Below are positions 14,172-63,805 of a stretch of DNA of 64,000 nucleotides, piece after piece. This stretch comes from an uncultured Bacillales bacterium (GTDB lineage Bacteria > Bacillota_I > Bacilli_A > RF39 > UBA660), in NCBI GenBank assembly GCA_946614095.1, contig CAMOGG010000001.1, positions 5,968-69,967 on the forward strand, in the 5' to 3' direction. Each line of letters starts with the position of its first letter. The first letter of the stretch is position 1. The notes below the pieces were generated by a model. It saw only the letters and a list, made by a program, of their open reading frames with translations, was not told the DNA's origin and did not search any database. The translations under genes and the position numbers were made by a program.

Positions 14172-14245
14172 ATTATCTCTCCTTCCGCCATGACAAAATA
14201 TTTGTCATAGTAATTCAATGCCATATTAATATATCAAATATTTCT

Positions 14246-37560: not shown

Positions 37561-38367
37561 TTATTTGTAATAAAATCCTACAATATTTTGTCCTAATTTT
37601 GTATTATCTCCATGCACTGCTGCATAATGTGATGCATAATACTTATCGGTAGCTGTGTTAATTCCACTTACTTTAATTTCAGCTAATTCAAATTCTTCTA
37701 TTTGATTCATAATTGCTTTTAATAAATCAATGTGGTATCCATCATCTTTCTTTTCAATGGCATCTTTCCAAATTTCTTTAGTGGTTGCTATTTTTGGATA
37801 AGTGTCATATATATATGATTCTTTTTTGATATGACTTCCTATATATAAGTATATATCTCTTGGATTACTATGATATTTTTCTATCATTTTTTGAAGAAAT
37901 GCTTTTGGTAATCCTCTATTAATGTGATATATTCCACAATGAACTATTCCACTATACCCTTTTTTACGATCCTCTGCAATCAAAACAGGACAATCTGCCA
38001 TTCTATGTGCTAAGGCAACACCTTTGTAATTATCATCTATAAAAAGTATATCTGCTTCTATTTTTTCCATAAAATAATCTTCTTTTGTCATATATAAATT
38101 ATTTATAAAAATGTCTTTATTATCTTCATAAACATCATTATCTTCCATTTTTTGTTTCACTTGAAACATTTTTAGTCCTGAAAAGTTGTACTTATTCCCT
38201 AATCTAATTCTTGCATCTTTCACAGATTGAAATATTTGAATTTTCGTATAATCTTTTGGGTAAAAATTCTTACTGGAGGAGAATATTCCATCTTTTTGAT
38301 TTCCTTCAAAGATTCTAATTTTGCTTTTCATATTATACATTAAATCGAAAGTGGCAGATATCTCCAT
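37561..38367 (-). CDS. YfiH/PgeF-like (DUF152, purine nucleoside phosphorylase/laccase-domain) protein
   Basis: …HRMADCPVLIA… and …VHCGIYHINRG… resemble the DUF152 Cys/His motifs. Confidence 0.4.
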   Translation of the reverse strand: MEISATFDLMYNMKSKIRIFEGNQKDGIFSSSKNFYPKDYTKIQIFQSVKDARIRLGNKYNFSGLKMFQVKQKMEDNDVYEDNKDIFINNLYMTKEDYFMEKIEADILFIDDNYKGVALAHRMADCPVLIAEDRKKGYSGIVHCGIYHINRGLPKAFLQKMIEKYHSNPRDIYLYIGSHIKKESYIYDTYPKIATTKEIWKDAIEKKDDGYHIDLLKAIMNQIEEFELAEIKVSGINTATDKYYASHYAAVHGDNTKLGQNIVGFYYK

Positions 38368-41539: not shown

Positions 41540-42356
41540 TATGCACCTCTATCTGATTATATGGTATTTTGATTCCTGCTTTGTCAAAGGCTATTTTTAT
41601 TTCTTTTCTTAACAATCTCTCTACTTTTGCCTGTTTCATAGGCTTTGTTTCGACTACAACTCTATATATAACTGCCGAATCTGATAAAGAGTTTACTCCC
41701 CATAATTCAATATCTTTCGTAGTTTCCGGTATTGTTCCATTTAATTTTTTAAATAAATCTTCAAATGTTTTTTCTATGATTTCCTCTTTACACTCATAAG
41801 CCACAGCAATATCTACTACTGCTAGAGAATTATTATCACTGTAATTAATAATATTATCCATATAATGATTTGCTATTATCTTTGTAGCTCCTTTATAATT
41901 ACGAATTCTTGTTGTACGTAGTCCTATATATGTAACTTCTCCTTTAAAACCATCTATTTCTATAGTGTCCCCGACTTCATATTCTCCTTCGATAATAATA
42001 GAGAACCCTGCAATCAAATCTTTGGCTAAATCTTGTAATGCTAATCCAATTAATGCTGTTCCTATTCCTAATCCAGCTAATATAGATTTTACATTAACTC
42101 CATGAAGAGAAAGTATAGATAAAATGACTAAAACAATAATAATATATTTAAACAAATTAATAATTAGAGTACGAAAAGTATTTATTCTTTGAATCTGAGT
42201 AGTTTTTAATCCTTTCTTTCTATCTGTAGTTTTGATGATAACTCTTTTGATAATACGAAAAATTCCATATCCAATTATAATGTTTAAAATGGATAATACT
42301 ACTATTTTTATATTAATTGTCTGACCAAATATATGAATCATATTATTTTTCCTCAT
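41529..42356 (-). CDS. MscS-family mechanosensitive channel
   Basis: TM helices plus beta domain (…GDTIEIDGFKGEVTYIGLRTTRIRNYKG…). Confidence 0.7.
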   Translation of the reverse strand: MRKNNMIHIFGQTINIKIVVLSILNIIIGYGIFRIIKRVIIKTTDRKKGLKTTQIQRINTFRTLIINLFKYIIIVLVILSILSLHGVNVKSILAGLGIGTALIGLALQDLAKDLIAGFSIIIEGEYEVGDTIEIDGFKGEVTYIGLRTTRIRNYKGATKIIANHYMDNIINYSDNNSLAVVDIAVAYECKEEIIEKTFEDLFKKLNGTIPETTKDIELWGVNSLSDSAVIYRVVVETKPMKQAKVERLLRKEIKIAFDKAGIKIPYNQIEVHNGK

Positions 42357-43266
42357 CTAAATGCATATATTCTAATAATCGATTTAAATCATTTCCATTT
42401 ACAAAACTAATTTCTATCTTATTTTTCCTGATTAAAACTTTTGTTCCTAATTTTTCACTTAATTCATTTTGTAGATAAGTATATTCATTTACTACTTTTT
42501 CTTTTGGCTTTTGAGGATTTGTTTTAATAATCTGTGGCTCTTGTGTTAATTTTTCTAATTCGCGTACACTGATACCTTCTTCTTTGATTTTATTTACTAA
42601 CTCTTGCTGTTGCTTTTCGTTTTCTAATTTACTTAGTACTCTAGCATGTCCCATAGAAATATTTTTTTCATTTAATTCTTCTTGTATTTTATCTGGTAAG
42701 TTTAGTAAACCTAACATATTTGTAATATGACTTCTACTTTTTCCTAAACGTGCTGCTAGTTGTTCTTGTGTTAATGATAATGTCTCTTGTAACTTTTTAT
42801 ATGCTGTTGCTTCTTCAATAGCACTTAAATCTTCTCTTTGTAGATTTTCTAATAATGCTATTTCCATCATTTGTGTATCATTAAAGTCTCTAATAATCGC
42901 AGGTATCTCCTTTAATCCAGCTAGTTGTGATGCTTTTACTCTCCTTTCTCCAGCTATTATTTCATATCCTTTTATTGATTTTTTAACAATAATTGGTTGA
43001 AAAACGCCATGTTCTTTGATGGAACTTGCTAATTCATTTAAAGCTTCTTCATTAAATACTTTCCTTGGTTGATAGGGATTGCTTCTCAATTCAGCAATTT
43101 TAATCATAGTGATTTCTTCTTTTGGTGTTTCATTGACTATTTTTTCTTCTACAGCACTATAATCTAATACTTCGCTGCTAAATAATTCTTCTAATCCTTT
43201 TCCAAGTGCTCTTCTTTTTGGAATTCCACTTTCGGTTACTTCATTATTTGTTTCCATTTCTTTCAA
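42343..43266 (-). CDS. parB: Chromosome-partitioning protein ParB/Spo0J
   Basis: ParB box GERR, HTH GKSRSHITNMLGLL. Positions homologous to Caulobacter ParB R173/T179/A184/G201 are R/M/N/G. Confidence 0.9.
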   Translation of the reverse strand: MKEMETNNEVTESGIPKRRALGKGLEELFSSEVLDYSAVEEKIVNETPKEEITMIKIAELRSNPYQPRKVFNEEALNELASSIKEHGVFQPIIVKKSIKGYEIIAGERRVKASQLAGLKEIPAIIRDFNDTQMMEIALLENLQREDLSAIEEATAYKKLQETLSLTQEQLAARLGKSRSHITNMLGLLNLPDKIQEELNEKNISMGHARVLSKLENEKQQQELVNKIKEEGISVRELEKLTQEPQIIKTNPQKPKEKVVNEYTYLQNELSEKLGTKVLIRKNKIEISFVNGNDLNRLLEYMHLDEEK

Positions 43267-44032
43267 TCACTTCCTTTGCTAGATTGATATATGCTTCAGA
43301 TCCTCTACTCTTTGGATCATATGCAACGATTGGTTCTCCATGTGATGGTGCTTCTGTTAGACGAACTAATCGTGGAATAATTGTGTTATAAACTTTTTCT
43401 TTAAAAAACTTTCGTATATCCTCCACTACTTCAAATCCTAGATTCGTTCTAGAGTCTAACATTGTTAATAAAACTCCTTCAATGTCTAATGTTGGATTTA
43501 AACTTTTTTGTGCTAACATAATTGTTTTTAATAATTGTGTTATTCCTTCTAAGGCAAAGAATTCACATTGAACTGGTATTATTACAGAATTAGATGCTGT
43601 TAACGCATTGGTTGTAATCACTCCAAGAGATGGAGGACAATCAATGATGATATAGTCAAAACTGTCTCTTATATCCATTAATCTTAATTTTAATTGTTCT
43701 CCCTTTTGAAATCCTACTTCTGTTCTACTTTTTTCTGTTAATTCTATATCTAATCCAGCTAAATTTATTGTTGCTGGAATCACATATAGATTTTTATATT
43801 TTGTTTTTATCATGGCTTCTGTAATATTACATTCACCAATTAATACATCATATATACTTCTTTCTATCTCTCCTTTATTAATTCCCACACCAGTAGTTGT
43901 ATTTCCTTGAGGATCTAAGTCTATTAATAATACTTTTTTACCTAATACTGCTAATGATGCTGAAAGATTGATGCTGGTTGTAGTTTTTCCTACACCACCT
44001 TTTTGATTTACTAATGATATAACCTTTCCCAT
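43244..44032 (-). CDS. parA: ParA/Soj partition ATPase
   Basis: Deviant Walker A NQKGGVGKTTT. Confidence 0.95.
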   Translation of the reverse strand: MGKVISLVNQKGGVGKTTTSINLSASLAVLGKKVLLIDLDPQGNTTTGVGINKGEIERSIYDVLIGECNITEAMIKTKYKNLYVIPATINLAGLDIELTEKSRTEVGFQKGEQLKLRLMDIRDSFDYIIIDCPPSLGVITTNALTASNSVIIPVQCEFFALEGITQLLKTIMLAQKSLNPTLDIEGVLLTMLDSRTNLGFEVVEDIRKFFKEKVYNTIIPRLVRLTEAPSHGEPIVAYDPKSRGSEAYINLAKEVIERNGNK

Positions 44033-44133: not shown

Positions 44134-45489
44134 TTATATTTGAGTCTTATCTATTTTGATAATGATTTGATAAGATTTTTCAAAGTCCATTTCATCTGTT
44201 CCTACCGTAATTCCATGGCTTTCTAAATCTTTTACTAGCTCTCTAATTTTACTTGTTGCTTCTTCTATCGTATATTTATCTGAATTACTACCTATTGAAG
44301 AATTTATTTCAAATCTTTTATCTTCTTGGATTGGATTTATTAAGTTATTATCCATTGGGTTTACTGTATCCATAGGATTTACTATACTAGATGGTAATTC
44401 GATAGAAGATAAATCTGATGTTTGAAAATAATCAGAGGACTGATTTATTACGTCATCTACTGGATCTGTTTTTACTATTTTTTCAGCTGGTGTTATGAAA
44501 TCAGTGGATGGTACTGATGAAGTTGGATTTCCTAGATTTAATAAACTATCTAAGGCTGCTCCTCCTGTATCAGTATTAATATCTGATGTATTTTCTTTTA
44601 CACTATTTATATCAATCGAAGTAACAGAACTTGGAATATCTAGATTTTTTTCATCCTCTTCTTCGTCTTCCTCATCTTTTCCTATTTCTCCATAATTTAT
44701 AAATTTACCCATTGGCATGTCCTCTCCATCTGGCGGAGCAATTGTCACTTTTCCATAATTTGAATTATCTTCTGGTAATTCGGCAGTTGGAATTAGTGGA
44801 TTGCTGTTTACAAATGCACTTACAGAAGCTTCTTGTGTCTCCTGAGGTGCTGTAAAAGTTTGATTTTCTTTTGGTTCTTTAGGATATAGTTGTTTGATTT
44901 CATCCTCTAAATTACGTACACTCATCTTTGTTTCTATTACTTTTTTTACCATTTCTTTTTGTTTTTCTGCATCAGGTATATTTAGTAATGATCTTGCGTG
45001 TCTTTCCGATATTTGTTCCTTTAATAATGCTTCTTGAATGGTATCAGGTAAAGATAATAGTCTAATTTTATTAGCCACCGCAGATTGACTTTTACCCATT
45101 GTTTTAGCTAACTCTTCTTGCGTCATTTGATCTAATTCTAAGATTTTTTGATATGTTCTAGCTTCTTCTATTGGATTTAAATTTTTTCTTTGTAAGTTTT
45201 CTAATAAGGCTACTTTAGAGCTTTCTTTATCATCTAAATCTCTAATGATAGCTGGAATTTTTGTTAATCCTGCTAAAGCTGATGCTTTGTATCTTCTTTC
45301 TCCAGCAATTATTTCATATTTTCCATTTACATTTCTAACAATGATGGGTTGAATTACTCCGTGTTCCTTGATAGAGACTGCTAATTCTTTTAATGCTCTT
45401 TCGTCAAATACTTCTCTAGGTTGGAATCTATTAGGAATAATATCATCTAAGTATAATTGTACTACTTCATCTTTATCATCTGGAAACAT
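44134..45489 (-). CDS. noc: Noc-like ParB paralogue with a ~250-aa low-complexity C-terminal extension
   Basis: ParB N-domain (GERR), HTH GKSQSAVANKIRLL…ISERHAR. Specificity positions are Q/K/S/R (Noc type is Q/K/K/R). Located in the Bacillus noc position (rsmG-noc-parA-parB). It lacks the N-terminal amphipathic helix of B. subtilis Noc, and the C-terminus is S/T/N/P/E-rich with NPMDTVNPMD repeats. GAGGGA RBS sits 5 nt upstream. Confidence 0.65.
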   Translation of the reverse strand: MFPDDKDEVVQLYLDDIIPNRFQPREVFDERALKELAVSIKEHGVIQPIIVRNVNGKYEIIAGERRYKASALAGLTKIPAIIRDLDDKESSKVALLENLQRKNLNPIEEARTYQKILELDQMTQEELAKTMGKSQSAVANKIRLLSLPDTIQEALLKEQISERHARSLLNIPDAEKQKEMVKKVIETKMSVRNLEDEIKQLYPKEPKENQTFTAPQETQEASVSAFVNSNPLIPTAELPEDNSNYGKVTIAPPDGEDMPMGKFINYGEIGKDEEDEEEDEKNLDIPSSVTSIDINSVKENTSDINTDTGGAALDSLLNLGNPTSSVPSTDFITPAEKIVKTDPVDDVINQSSDYFQTSDLSSIELPSSIVNPMDTVNPMDNNLINPIQEDKRFEINSSIGSNSDKYTIEEATSKIRELVKDLESHGITVGTDEMDFEKSYQIIIKIDKTQI

Positions 45490-55663: not shown

Positions 55664-56110
55664 TTGAATTATGAGATTAGTAAAGGTACATTAGCTGTTG
55701 TACCAAATGAGTTTGAAAAGAGTATTGTCTATGAAGACGAGGAAAAGTATTTTGTAGATCAGTCTCCATTTCAAATAATGGAAGAAAGTTGTAAATATTT
55801 TGGAAGTACATATGAGGGAAGAAAAATAGGTGCAAAAGAAATCTTAGGAGCAGAATATAAAGTACCAATTGTAGTAGAGGATAGTAATAATTTAATTGTC
55901 TTTCCTACTACTTCACCGTCTTCTAATGGATGTGTTTGGATTTCTTTAAAAAGAGTAAAAAAAATAGAAAAAATTACTTCTAATCAAACAAGAGTAATAT
56001 TTGATAATAACATTGAAATCGTAGTAGATTGTTCTTTTCGTACTTTAGAAAATCAATTGTCTAGAGCATCACGTTTAGATTTAATTCTAAGAAATCATAA
56101 AAATAGTTAA
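55664..56110 (+). CDS. comK: ComK-family competence transcription factor homologue (short, 148 aa)
   Basis: Aligns with B. subtilis ComK blocks: YEISKGTLAVVPNE / YEVNGATIAVLPEE; PFQIMEESCKYFGSTYEGRKIGA / PLQIVDRSCRFFGSSYAGRKAGT; KVPIVVEDSNNLIVFPTTSPSSNGCVWIS / KPPIMVDPSNQIFLFPTLSSTRPQCGWIS. Confidence 0.7.
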   Translation: MNYEISKGTLAVVPNEFEKSIVYEDEEKYFVDQSPFQIMEESCKYFGSTYEGRKIGAKEILGAEYKVPIVVEDSNNLIVFPTTSPSSNGCVWISLKRVKKIEKITSNQTRVIFDNNIEIVVDCSFRTLENQLSRASRLDLILRNHKNS

Positions 56111-59275: not shown

Positions 59276-59287
59276 GAGGGTTTGAAA

Positions 59288-61750
59288 ATGGATAGATTAG
59301 AAAAAAATAATATTGTGCAAGAAGTAAAAGATTCGTTTTTAGAGTATTCCATGAGTGTTATTGTGGCACGTGCTCTTCCTGATTTGCGTGATGGATTAAA
59401 GCCTGTACATAGACGTATTTTGTACTCTATGTATGAATCTGGCTATACTCCAGATAAACCTCATAAAAAAAGTGCAAGAATTGTTGGGGATGTAATGGGA
59501 AAATATCATCCTCATGGTGATTCTTCTATTTATGAGGCAATGGTAAGAATGGCTCAGGACTTTTCATATCGATATATGTTAGTAGATGGACATGGAAACT
59601 TTGGAAATATTGAAGGTTATGGAGCAGCTGCCATGCGTTATACGGAATCTAGACTTGCTAAGATATCATTGGAATTACTTCGTAATATCAATAAAGATAC
59701 TGTTAATTTTGTTCCTAATTTTGATGAAAGTGAAAGAGAACCAGAAGTTTTACCTTCACGTTTTCCTAACATTTTAGTGAATGGAACAACAGGTATTGCG
59801 GTTGGTATGGCTACGAATATTCCTCCTCATAATTTAGGAGAAGTAATTGATGGATGTGTTGCTTATATTGATAATCCTGAAATTGAATTAGATGAATTAA
59901 TGCAATATATTAAAGGACCAGACTTTCCTACAGGTGCTATTATTTTAGGAAATAGTGGAATTAGAAAGGCATATGAAACAGGTAGGGGAAGTATTACAAT
60001 TCGAAGTAAAGCAACTATTGAGGAAGAACACGGTAGACAACAAATTATTATTGATGAAGTACCATATGGTGTAAATACATTAGAATTAAAAAATAAAGTT
60101 GCAGAACTTGTTCATAATAAAACAATTGAAGGTATTGCTGATTATCATTCTGATTTAAAAAATGGTATTAAAATTACCATTACTTTAAAAAGAGATGCTA
60201 ATGCTCAGGTAGTATTAAATAAACTTTATAAACATACTTCATTTCAAACTACCTATGGAATTATATTCTTGATGTTAGATCAAGGTGTACCAAAGACTTT
60301 AGGATTAAAAGATATTATTTCTAAATATATTGAATATCAAAAAGAGGTTATTATTCGTCGTACTAAGTTTGATTTGGATGTTGCGGAAAAAAGAGTTCAT
60401 ATATTAGAAGGATTAAAAATTGCTTTAGATAATATTGATGCTGTTATTAAAGTAATTCGTGGATCTAATTCTGATGATGAAGCACGTACTGGATTGATGG
60501 AAGGGTTCAAATTAACGGAAATCCAAGCTAATGCAATCTTAGAAATGAGATTACGCCGTTTAACGGGCTTAGAGCGTGAAAAGATTGAAAATGAATTAAA
60601 TGATTTATTAAAAACAATTGCTGACTTAAAAGCTATTTTAGCTAGTGATGAGAAGATATTAGAGGTCATTAAGAATGAATTGTTAGAAATTAAGCAAAAA
60701 TATGGTGATGAAAGACGTACTAATATTGATATGACGGCAATTGAATATATTGAAGATGAATCTTTGATTCCAGAAGAGGATGTTATTATTAACTTAACGA
60801 AGAAAGGATATATTAAGAGACTTAGAACTGATACATATAAAACTCAAAATAGAGGTGGAGTTGGTATCAAAGGAATGTCCACGAATGAAGAAGATTTTGT
60901 TGAACATTTAATTACTATGAATACTCATGATTTTATATTATTCTTTTCTAATCGTGGTAGAGTTTATCGTATGAAGGGTTATGAAATTCCTGAATTTTCA
61001 AGACAATCAAAAGGATTACCAATCATTAATTTATTACCACTTGAAAAAGATGAGAACATAAGTTCGATAATTAGTATAAAACGTAATGATGATTTTACTA
61101 AATATTTAATGTTTGCAACTAAAAATGGTATTGTTAAACGTACACCTATTGAAGAATTTGATAATATTCGAAAGGGTGGGAAAATTGCTATTGTTTTAAA
61201 AGAAAATGATGAGTTAATCAGTGTTAAAAGCACTTGTGGAAAAAATGAAATTGTAATCGGAGCAAGTAATGGTAGATTAGTTCGTTTTGATGAAAATGAA
61301 GTTCGTTCTATGGGAAGAAGTAGTTCTGGTGTTAAAGGAATGGATCTTGATGGTAGTATTGTTGTAGGTGCTGAAGTCGTTTCTCCTGGTCATTTGGTTT
61401 TAATTGTAACCGAGAAAGGATATGGAAAGAAAACTTTAATTGATGAATATCGTTTAACTCATAGAGGTAGTAAAGGAGTTAAAGCACTTAATGTTACAGA
61501 TAAAAATGGTATGATGGCTTCTCTTAAATGTTTAAATCCATCAGCCAATGAAATTTTGGATCTTATGATTATGACAAATAGTGGAGTTATTATAAAATTA
61601 CCATTAGATCAAGTTTCTACTTTAAAACGTGCAACACAAGGTGTTAGACTAATTAATCTTAAAGAAGAACAGATAGTTTCTACTGTAGCACTTGTGGAAA
61701 AAGAAAATATTAATAACGAAGAATCTATTGAAGAAGAAAAAAAAGATTAA
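59288..61750 (+). CDS. gyrA: DNA gyrase subunit A
   Basis: Active-site region …AAMRYTE…. ATG at 59288 has AGGAGG 9 nt upstream. The track ORF begins at TTG 59282. Confidence 0.97.
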
Positions 61751-61935: not shown

Positions 61936-62350
61936 ATGAGACGAAAAAACGTTGATGAAAGTTTCTTTATCTCATACGAGATGGAATTGTTAATATCACA
62001 TGTTTTTCACTACAAAACATCATAGAAAAGTAATATATAGAAAATTTCGCAGAGATATAGAAGTGTATCTAAGAAGACTATGTGATTATAAAGGAGTTGA
62101 GATAGTTGAAGTGAATGTTTGCTCCGATCATATTCACATGTTAGTAAAGATTTCACCTAAAATTACTGTTTTTTTTTTATGGAATATTAAAAAGGTAAGA
62201 GTAGTTTAATGATATTTGAAAAGCATGCTAATCTAAAATATTATTATGAAAATCGACATTTTTGAGCAGAAAGATATTACGTTAGTACTGTAGAGTCTAG
62301 TAAAACTACAATAAAACGTTATATTCAAAATCAGGATGTGGAGAATCAGA
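61936..62350 (+). mobile_element. Degraded IS200/IS605-family tnpA (Y1/HUH transposase) with frameshifts and in-frame stops
   Basis: Fragments …VEIVEVNVCSDHIHMLVKISPKITV… (HxH HUH motif) and …NLKYYYENRHF*AERYYVSTVESSKTTIKRYIQNQ… match IS200 TnpA but are interrupted. Confidence 0.6.
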
Positions 62351-62465: not shown

Positions 62466-62499
62466 TTAAAAAATCCACCCTTAAAAGGGTGGGTTTTTA
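62466..62499. terminator. GC-rich perfect hairpin tccaccctt-aaaa-gggtgga flanked by A and T runs (bidirectional terminator, or IS200/IS605 subterminal hairpin)
   Basis: Direct reading. Confidence 0.5.
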
Positions 62500-62519
62500 T
62501 TAGTATTAATAAAAAACAA

Positions 62520-63165
62520 GTTTTGTGAACCTATATAGAGAGAAGAAAAAAATATTTCCCGGGAAATAATTTGGGAAATATAACTAATAACTAAAAAATA
62601 TATAATAATCAAAAATGATGATGTTTCACGTGAAACTATATAGAAAGAAGAAATAAATATTTCCCGGGAAATAATTTGGGAAATAAAACTAATAAATAAA
62701 GTATACATAATAATCAAAAATGGAGATGTTTCACGTGAAACTATATAGAGAGGAGAAAAAAATATTTCCCGGGAAATAATTTGGGAAATAAAACTAATAA
62801 ATAAAGAATATATAATTATCAAAAATGAAGATGTTTTACGTGAAACTATATAGAAAGAAGAAAAAAATATTTCCCGGGAAATAATTTGGGAAATAAAACT
62901 AATAAATAAAGTATACATAATAATCAAAAATGGAGATGTTTCACGTGAAACTATATAGAGAGGAGAAAAAAATATTTCCCGGGAAATAATTTGGGAAATA
63001 TAACTAATAAATAAAGGATATATAATAATCAAAAATGAAGATGTTTCACGTGAAACTATATAGAGAGGAGAAAAAATATTTCCCGGGAAATAATTTGGAA
63101 AATATAACTAATAAATAAGTGATACATAATAATCAAAAATGAAGATGTTTCATGTGAAACTATAT
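62520..63165. repeat. Tandem array of six ~105-bp units, each with one parS-like palindrome (GTTTCACGTGAAAC) and one perfect Noc-binding-site palindrome (TATTTCCCGGGAAATA)
   Basis: parS-like cores at 62623, 62728, 62833 (GTTTTACGTGAAAC), 62938, 63043 and 63147 (GTTTCATGTGAAAC), plus a degenerate copy at 62520. NBS-like 16-mers at 62553, 62658, 62763, 62868, 62973 and 63077. Periods are 105/105/105/105/104 bp. An extra TTTGGGAAAT half-site follows each NBS. Units are about 90% identical. Confidence 0.9.
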
Positions 63166-63269
63166 ATATGAGGTGAAATATATTCTAATTATTATTCACT
63201 TTTTTTTAGTTATTTATTATAAACTATTATTTTATTTACTTTTATTATTTTTTGTATTAAAATAATTTT

Positions 63270-63346
63270 GTGCAATGAAAGTGATTGAAACAGGTCAGGA
63301 TTGGAAAATAGCAGCCTTAAGATCCTCCTTTCATGTGCACTTTTTA
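63270..63346 (+). ncRNA. ffs: Small signal-recognition-particle RNA (4.5S/scRNA-type, ~77 nt) with intrinsic terminator
   Basis: Contains the conserved domain IV motif CAGGUCAGG-auu-GGAA-aau-AGCAGCC (GNRA tetraloop). 5' GUGCAAUGAAAG pairs with 3' CUUUCAUGUGCAC, followed by a T-run. The ffs-tadA-dnaX neighbourhood is conserved in Bacilli. Confidence 0.7.
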
Positions 63347-63358
63347 TTTGGAGGAAAT

Positions 63359-63805
63359 ATGGAAGATAGATTTATGAAATTAGCGTTTGAATGTGCAAAA
63401 AAGGCATATCAACTTAATGAGGTTCCAATTGGTGCAGTTATTGTTAAAAATGGTGAAGTGATAGCAACAGGTTATAATAAAAAAGAATCCAATTGCTCTG
63501 TTTTAGAACATGCTGAATTGATTGCTATAAGAAAGGCTGAAGAAAAACTTCATAATTGGAGATTGGATGATTGTGATATGTATGTAACGCTTGATCCTTG
63601 TCCTATGTGTGCTAGTGCAATTAAGCAATCAAGATTTTCTCATGTTTATTCTGCTTTAAGTAATTCTGATGAAAATAATTCTAACATTATTCAATCTATT
63701 TTTTTAACTGATCATGTCAATCCATGTATAATTTTTAAAAGCAATCTTTTTCCTGATTATTCTCAAAAATTACTTCGCAATTTTTTTAAAAATAAAAGAA
63801 TTTAA
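63359..63805 (+). CDS. tadA: tRNA-specific adenosine deaminase TadA
   Basis: CDA motifs HAELIAI and PCPMCA. The ATG at 63359 has GGAGGA upstream. The track ORF's 5' extension (from 63275) overlaps the SRP RNA and is rejected. Confidence 0.8.
   Translation: MEDRFMKLAFECAKKAYQLNEVPIGAVIVKNGEVIATGYNKKESNCSVLEHAELIAIRKAEEKLHNWRLDDCDMYVTLDPCPMCASAIKQSRFSHVYSALSNSDENNSNIIQSIFLTDHVNPCIIFKSNLFPDYSQKLLRNFFKNKRI

Follow-up and report, generated by a model that had tools for sequence, protein, structure and literature searches.

In the textbook account, ParB and Noc go back to a gene duplication that ended in a clean split, with ParB as the centromere binder and Noc as a genome-wide, membrane-tethering nucleoid occlusion factor. 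What, then, should be made of a locus where binding sites of both kinds alternate in a single tandem array? Such an array is located near the right end of the DNA analyzed here, a 64,000-nucleotide stretch of contig CAMOGG010000001.1 from an uncultured Bacillales bacterium (guanine-cytosine (GC) content 28%), which we call the window. In our view, the array is probably the form that a conserved composite centromere takes in this species, a centromere that would load two paralogous cytidine triphosphate (CTP) clamps, ParB and a Noc-type protein, onto the same origin-proximal DNA.

Tandem Repeats Finder detected the array at positions 62525-63166, with a period of 105 bp, 6.1 copies, 92% matches and a score of 1086. 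Every unit combines a single Noc-binding site (NBS) with an additional GGGAAAT half-site and a parS-like site. Unit alignment showed that all six units are mutually distinguishable. The NBS, ATTTCCCGGGAAAT, is exact in every unit (62554-62567 in unit 1, then 62659-62672, 62764-62777, 62869-62882, 62974-62987 and 63078-63091 in units 2-6). These six exact copies in the 64-kb window compare to 0.32 expected from shuffled sequences, and outside the array no further copy was found in the window even with up to two mismatches allowed. Deviations from the unit consensus were absent from the NBS (0/84 positions), compared to 25/420 in the spacers (Fisher p = 0.013).

The initial annotation had described six units of ~105 bp, each with a parS-like site and an exact NBS. 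Six sites of each type are indeed present, but only four of the parS cores are intact. With respect to the parS consensus TGTTNCACGTGAAACA, four sites with the sequence TGTTTCACGTGAAACT (62622-62637, 62727-62742, 62937-62952 and 63042-63057) match at 15 of 16 positions and keep the 14-bp palindromic core. The two others match at 14 of 16 positions and have one core substitution each: TGTTTTACGTGAAACT at 62832-62847 (TTTTAC) and, in the last unit, TGTTTCATGTGAAACT at 63146-63161 (CATGTG). The left edge of the array holds a truncated parS remnant. Overall, we observed 14 parS matches in the window (seven sites, each on both strands), while 0.07 were expected from shuffles. The sole parS-like site away from the array, TGTTTCACTTGAAACA at 38153-38168, has a central mismatch and is situated inside an open reading frame (ORF) at 37561-38367 on the minus strand.

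The offsets of 36 and 69 bp between site centers, given in the same annotation, were reproduced in our site map, where an NBS is followed by a parS-like site after 69 bp and by the next NBS after another 36 bp. The third half-site is real as well and recurs every 105 bp on the plus strand, from 62573-62579 onwards. It starts 5 nt after the 14-bp NBS, where the initial annotation had given 8 bp, and it is degenerate (GGAAAAT) in unit 6. Together, the NBS and the half-site read as a direct repeat of GGGAAATAATTT. The array is base-identical in two other assembly records, L001 (ENA) and L124 (AUXO…), which possibly come from the same source sample; the copy number is the one given by the assemblies. 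The sites in the array are real and improbable by chance.

The array sits in a 1.6-kb gap between the genes between which it had been placed. On the left is gyrA (59282-61750, plus strand); on the right are ffs, the gene of the small signal recognition particle RNA (63260-63356, plus strand; Rfam RF00169, 56.3 bits), and then tadA (63359-63805). Its claimed proximity to the origin is borne out too. The GC-skew minimum and sign change are at ~52 kb, beside dnaA, and gene orientation switches at the same place (rnpA/dnaA); therefore, oriC is placed ~10 kb to the left of the array.

As had been claimed, the window contains the genes of both cognate-type proteins, which have the expected specificity residues. 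On the minus strand, the gene order mnmG, rsmG, noc-like, soj, parB is that of gidA-gidB-noc-soj-spo0J in B. subtilis. The gene at 42343-43266 codes for a canonical chromosomal ParB/Spo0J with the N-terminal LGKGL motif for ParA activation; its top match in the PDB was Spo0J (6sdk, 219 bits). The ParA/Soj ATPase gene follows at 43244-44032. The gene at 44134-45489 codes for a Noc-type ParB paralog of 451 aa with a Noc-like C-terminal domain and the CTP-binding motifs GERR and ENLQR. Its top PDB matches were the Noc structures 7nfu and 7ng0 (215 bits) and 7ol9 (197 bits), compared to 174-182 bits for ParB/Spo0J structures.

The recognition residues can be read directly from the two sequences. 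ParB reads GKSRSHITNMLGLLNLP…SMGHAR, which gives R173 and G201, while the Noc-like protein reads GKSQSAVANKIRLLSLP…SERHAR, which gives Q173, K179, S184 and R201. In the work of Jalal et al. (2020), Q173 reads adenine 1 and R201 reads cytosine 6 of the NBS, and one permissive lysine, at 179 or 184, is enough for NBS preference (PMC7383237). Since Q173, K179 and R201 fit these rules, the Noc-like protein is predicted to prefer the NBS; the ParB protein, with its RxxG residues, is predicted to prefer parS.

As a Noc, the Noc-like protein is atypical. It begins MFPDDKDEVVQL, aligning to about residue 22-26 of the Bacillus/Geobacillus Noc structures; thus, helices alpha1 and alpha2 are missing and, with them, the amphipathic membrane-targeting sequence of 10 aa. 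The ORF cannot be lengthened upstream. Membrane binding by Noc requires the N-terminal amphipathic helix (PMC8429893). Among the best 120 homologs listed (417-533 aa), the short N-terminus recurs in 116 and the residues QKSR in 107. The motif PNRFQPR stands at index 18 in 116 of these 120; in B. subtilis Noc we take it to be at about index 40. Between the DNA-binding and the C-terminal domains, at residues ~204-403, there is an acidic insertion of ~200 residues. This linker is predicted to be disordered except for three short helices, in a whole-protein structure prediction of low confidence (mean pLDDT, the predicted local distance difference test score, of 58).

Islands of strong conservation were seen along the linker: AFVNxNPLIPTAE, SNYGKVTIAPPEG…GKFINYGE, TSIDVNxVKEN, LDSLLNLGNPTSS, FITPAEKIVKTD and SDYFxTxDLSS. 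By their appearance, these islands look like short linear interaction motifs.

Is the pairing of the two sites a feature of one genome or of a clade? We scanned one genome per species (185,579 species) with the pattern NBS-N{10,40}-parS. At least 120 matches were found compared to ~0.1-1 expected by chance (our estimate for a 24-base pattern). Nearly all the matches listed were from metagenome-assembled genomes (MAGs) of uncultured gut "Bacilli bacterium", including Clostridium sp. CAG:710, CAG:1000 and Ca. Scybalousia; from the names CAG-710, CAG-1000 and Ca. Scybalousia, we take the clade with both sites to be the GTDB order RF39. When the window proteins were used in tblastn searches, ~115 of the 120 matches listed turned out to occupy the corresponding region, with gyrA on the upstream side and dnaX-ybaB-recR on the downstream side, and with GyrA identity to the window of 55-92%. 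As the left boundary of this conserved intergenic region, gyrA was in synteny in ~103 related loci, and ffs was directly upstream of tadA in 13/13 relatives' loci tested.

We also took a sample of eight loci with TadA homologs, for which long contigs were the sole criterion. Both site types were present between gyrA and tadA or dnaX in all eight, and neither was present elsewhere in these 10-kb loci. In total, the sample had 27 NBS-like sites (exact or with one mismatch) in 84 kb compared to ~0.01 expected in a composition-based estimate. The initial annotation had pointed to the gyrA-tadA interval of related genomes as a place where the array might prove to be passenger DNA of a mobile element; the eight loci speak for a resident feature instead. 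In agreement with this, the composite NBS-parS pattern had no match in 2.9 million viral contigs. Judged by conservation across species, these data establish that the pairing of parS and NBS is conserved and selected at a fixed origin-proximal position, with cognate-type proteins in the same genomes.

The architecture of the region is variable among the relatives. Site maps showed clusters with a median of four parS and three NBS. Regular alternating tandem arrays of at least three units were found in 16 of 128 loci and two units in another 37, the remainder having dispersed pairs. The periods of the relatives' arrays were 64, 74, 76, 80 (13 copies), 83, 84, 117 and 136 bp and longer. One analogous array (L066) is on a contig of 388 kb that, to judge from its naming, is from a long-read assembly. 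Spacers of different species are unrelated in sequence and differ in length, and only the palindromes with their immediate flanks are conserved. The logo of the clade's parS is AT-GTTTCACGTGAAAC-AT, and that of its NBS extends to ~24 bp, AAAWT-ATTTCCCGGGAAAT-AWTTT (AAAWTATTTCCCGGGAAATAWTTT). The third half-site was detected in just 3 of 630 flanks in the relatives' clusters.

The two site types also differ in how strictly they keep to the cluster. Over 0.94 Mb of related loci, we counted 506 clustered and 5 isolated parS, compared to 300 clustered and 38 isolated NBS. Isolated NBS were seen both in genes beside the cluster and on further contigs of related DNA. Having parS almost confined to the cluster and NBS also isolated fits a centromere to which NBS were added. 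In the relatives, parS and NBS never overlap: no two centers are closer than 18 bp, and most are 22 bp or more apart, so that two homodimers could be bound at the same time. No hybrid sites, made of half a parS and half an NBS, were found in the relatives' clusters; such sites would have pointed to ParB-Noc heterodimers.

Several isolated sites recur at particular places. In 23 species, a perfect 24-bp extended NBS, AAATTATTTCCCGGGAAATAATTT, is located inside dnaX (residue ~355-412, reading K-I-I-S-R-E-I-I-S), ~1.7-1.8 kb from the cluster; loci L004, L010, L012, L017, L027, L031 and L032 are among the examples. The dnaX gene of the window itself (L001 10491-12209) has no such site. Three more isolated NBS are in ybaB. 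The dnaX site is a conserved, predicted protein-binding site within a coding region, and would be analogous to the parS inside spo0J. Besides, the 25-mer TTTCCCGGGAAATAATTTGGGAAAT, an NBS with the extra half-site in the form of the direct repeat of GGGAAATAATTT, was found in 77 other metagenome stretches of ~27% GC (L123-L200). These are single sites at unrelated intergenic places, most of them with no parS nearby; several copies seem to flank polA, before and after it and ~2.9 kb apart, with the gene identity read from the flanks.

Variation in the placement of the cluster was observed as well. In some relatives the array is in the tadA-dnaX gap instead of the gyrA-ffs gap, for example in L016 (928-1559) and L203 (5459-5970), and L203 has sites in both gaps. 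In L206 (4235-4525) and L208 (4231-4521), a 96-aa ORF with a weak TfoX_N match lies amid the parS and NBS sites of the gyrA-tadA gap. A large share of the contigs with close tadA homologs were shorter than 2 kb, which is consistent with assembly breaks at upstream arrays; therefore, array sizes in short-read MAGs need caution.

How would a composite centromere work? The parS sites would nucleate the partition protein ParB, and the interleaved, non-overlapping NBS would nucleate the Noc-type paralog. Since both proteins are of the CTP-gated ParB clamp family, each clamp would be loaded at the palindrome that it recognizes, before sliding onto the flanking DNA that the two share. Through interleaving and tandem amplification, both proteins would be loaded at a higher rate, and interleaving would ensure that both paralogs coat one stretch of DNA, so that a mixed ParB/Noc nucleoprotein complex would form at the origin. 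Tandem amplification would have arisen independently, with differing unit lengths, as a way of raising the loading capacity. Because the paralog is without the membrane-targeting helix, it would be likely to recruit a partner through the conserved short motifs of its disordered linker rather than to tether DNA to the membrane.

A wider version of this model is one that we put forward more tentatively, and with somewhat more doubt than belief. An order-level clade of uncultured gut Bacilli may have a bipartite centromere, at which ParB and an anchor-less Noc are co-loaded into one mixed CTP-clamp complex at the origin, and the linker motifs may then recruit a partner from the segregation, replication or division machinery. 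The bipartite centromere could represent either a repurposed Noc or a near-ancestral state following the ParB/Noc duplication. In the ancestral case, the NBS would derive from parS copies within the centromere.

Several observations weigh against the composite centromere. The loci of the genome scan were chosen for the presence of both motifs, so the counts made on them are biased, and only the eight-locus sample and the window are unbiased. In the window itself, two of the six parS are degenerate in the core and the remaining four depart from the usual outer base, while the NBS are perfect; for this reason, the array of this particular genome may serve Noc more than ParB. The right flank of the window's parS (T,A) is also atypical compared to the AT-GTTTCACGTGAAAC-AT of the relatives. 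The Noc-like protein has S rather than K at position 184. On the NCBIfam model TIGR04285 (nucleoid_noc) it scored 292.2 bits, below the curated cut-off of 315 (the window's ParB scored 245.3 bits); the shortfall is in the C-terminal part of the profile, a part that the linker insertion interrupts. Also, any function of the mixed complex is something we purely infer.

The same data can be read in other ways. The alternation in the array is so strict that each sliding clamp must pass the nucleation site of the other protein. ParB clamps are halted by tightly bound proteins. Bound at the NBS, Noc could be a roadblock that confines or restricts the sliding of ParB, in the manner of an insulator, or ParB could do so to Noc; alternatively, the array could be a titration sink for free ParB and Noc. 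In neither case would there be a cooperative mixed complex. The perfect NBS and partly degenerate parS of the window could also be taken to speak for roles of this kind. Such antagonistic or regulatory roles seem unlikely to us. Many relatives have dispersed clusters in which several parS are not flanked by NBS, an arrangement ill suited to insulation; direct competition does not arise, since no sites overlap; and a sink needs no conserved, syntenic, origin-proximal position. The dispersed architectures and the strict synteny are better accommodated by a composite centromere than by roadblock and titration models. The initial annotation had favored a centromere or a membrane-tethering hub, and it is the centromere that was strengthened by the comparative data. 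A canonical hub, where Noc at the six NBS attaches the origin to the membrane and blocks Z-ring assembly as Noc does in B. subtilis, would agree with the exact NBS, with a protein whose DNA-binding helix, C-terminal domain and synteny are Noc-like, and with the further NBS dispersed over related DNA, much as they are in B. subtilis. In that species, moreover, Spo0J and Noc together restrain Z rings (PMC6852036). We nevertheless hold a hub to be quite improbable. The missing helices alpha1 and alpha2 with the 10-aa membrane-targeting sequence, in an ORF that cannot be extended upstream, and the recurrence of the short N-terminus in 116 of the best 120 homologs listed leave the tether without its anchor, and the linker is acidic and predicted to be disordered, hence an unlikely anchor for anionic membranes.

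Two further explanations would take Noc, or any function, out of the picture. The likeness of the palindrome to the Noc site might be coincidental, and the site might be read by another factor, such as a regulator of ffs, tadA or dnaX or a restriction-modification component acting at CCCGGG. In the clade, the site is longer than the classical NBS (~24 bp, AAAWTATTTCCCGGGAAATAWTTT) and at times has an extra abutting half-site, neither of which is described for B. subtilis Noc, and the Noc-like protein falls under the TIGR04285 cut-off. On the other hand, the 14-bp core is the same as that of the experimentally defined NBS, the window and the clade as a whole encode a protein with Q173, K179 and R201, the array has no excess of promoter-like matches (12 compared to 13.6 expected from shuffles), and a site within the dnaX coding sequence in 23 species fits a chromosome-organization site better than an operator; we consider another reader highly improbable. 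An array with no function at all (an assembly artifact, a selfish satellite, cargo of an IS200 element or a protein-coding repeat) has the least to recommend it and is exceedingly improbable. Short-read assembly can mis-size tandem repeats, many of the metagenomic contigs with tadA are very short, which is consistent with breaks at such repeats, an IS200 TnpA fragment lies ~350 bp away, and a 183-aa ORF (62481-63032, minus strand) spans the array. The six units are all distinguishable, though, the sequence is identical in three assembly records, and analogous arrays exist in many species, including that of the 388-kb L066 contig. The insertion sequence (IS) fragment is missing from almost all relatives, and viral contigs had no matches. 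As to the ORF, it has no Pfam match and arises solely from the fact that 105 bp is 35 codons; the periods of 62, 64, 74, 76, 80 and 83 bp in other species are not multiples of 3.

The 105-bp period had also been interpreted as ten helical turns that would place all sites on the same side of the helix. As a design rule, this was not upheld: other species have periods of 62-64, 74-76, 80, 83-84, 117 and 136 bp, and the tests were non-significant after collapsing of related sequences. The raw histogram of parS-NBS spacing in the relatives had peaks at 26-27, 36 and 47-48 bp, with a power of 15-17 at T = 10.5-11.5; once homologous spacers were collapsed, the phasing was not significant (p about 0.3). 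Similarly, most periods of the multi-copy arrays are near integer turns at 10.5 bp per turn, while the family-collapsed Rayleigh test gave p = 0.37. Clustering of spacers by shared 6-mers was discarded, since in this AT-rich, low-complexity DNA it merged everything. Helical phasing is suggestive only, and we leave it as an open lead.

Some other features of the window deserve mention. Directly to the left of the array is a bidirectional terminator-like hairpin (62469-62498). The IS200/IS605 remnant, noted previously beside the array, was confirmed by three-frame translation as a fragment of TnpA (Y1 transposase) at ~62000-62170 on the plus strand, with the motif ...CSDHIHMLVKI...; downstream it is degraded by stop codons and frameshifts. 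TnpA-homologous fragments were found in just 2 of ~200 other loci, and the remnant is an incidental neighbor of the array. A gene of the ComK family (148 aa, 55664-56110, plus strand; Pfam PF06338 on the identical contig) is located between dnaN and recF, a position kept in 22 related loci. An L31-Firmicutes ribosomal-protein leader (RF03156, 36.3 bits) at 14179-14210 on the minus strand has no relation to the array.

What would a composite centromere mean for the textbook split between ParB and Noc? A large clade keeps the two specificities apart and yet sets their sites side by side at the centromere, with a Noc that has no anchor, which would imply a different division of labor between the paralogs. 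The arrangement raises the questions of how two sliding paralogous clamps share one DNA track, of what Noc does before or without membrane binding, and of how a centromere may be tuned by tandem amplification. It may account for the frequent assembly breaks beside tadA in abundant gut bacteria, and it offers a natural design for orthogonal dual labeling arrays. It is also testable in vitro without cultivation, given two recombinant proteins and the 105-bp DNA unit.

The initial annotation considered a natural array of this kind to be undescribed. A full-text literature search retrieved papers on ParB and Noc specificity, structure and imaging and none on natural interleaved parS/NBS clusters or on a long Noc without an anchor. 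The array is not singular, however, being one architecture of a clade-wide cluster of parS and NBS.

Clusters of parS as such are familiar: chromosomes of Caulobacter, Corynebacterium and Myxococcus have from several to about 20 sites near oriC. The array resembles these clusters and the Spo0J-parS system of B. subtilis in its family of 16-bp palindromes, its origin-proximal position, the ParB and ParA genes nearby and the presence of multiple clustered sites. Unlike in chromosomal ParABS centromeres, the parS here are interleaved with the sites of a second ParB paralog, in regular tandem units in some species, and, unlike in B. subtilis, the window's parB carries no internal parS. With the Noc-NBS systems of B. 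subtilis and S. aureus, the locus shares the identical 14-bp core, the Noc-type recognition residues, the CTP-binding motifs, the C-terminal domain and the gene neighborhood, as well as additional scattered NBS in flanking and other DNA. In Noc-NBS systems, the NBS are spread over the chromosome and scarce at the terminus. It differs from them in the lack of a membrane-targeting helix at the N-terminus, in ~200 extra disordered residues with conserved motifs, in S184 instead of K and in a score below the hidden Markov model cut-off. In addition, the NBS of the clade are extended to ~24 bp and concentrated with parS in the cluster.

Two other systems bear comparison. The sopC centromere of the F plasmid consists of 12 tandem 43-bp units with one SopB site each, and it is likewise a head-to-tail array with a palindromic site for a ParB-family protein in each unit. 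While sopC serves one protein on a plasmid, the array described here is chromosomal and syntenic, has the sites of two paralogs per unit and had no matches in viral contigs; it sits among chromosomal housekeeping genes rather than on a plasmid or phage replicon. In B. subtilis, RacA-ram is a second DNA-binding system of the origin region that operates beside Spo0J in sporulation. It is similar in being a second site-specific protein with sites concentrated near oriC, and RacA cooperates with the ParB system in origin positioning. RacA, however, is unrelated to ParB, and the ram sites are spread over hundreds of kb and are not interleaved with parS. Compared to all these systems, the new elements are the conserved interleaving of sites at the centromere and the divergent Noc subfamily, while both components are of known kinds.

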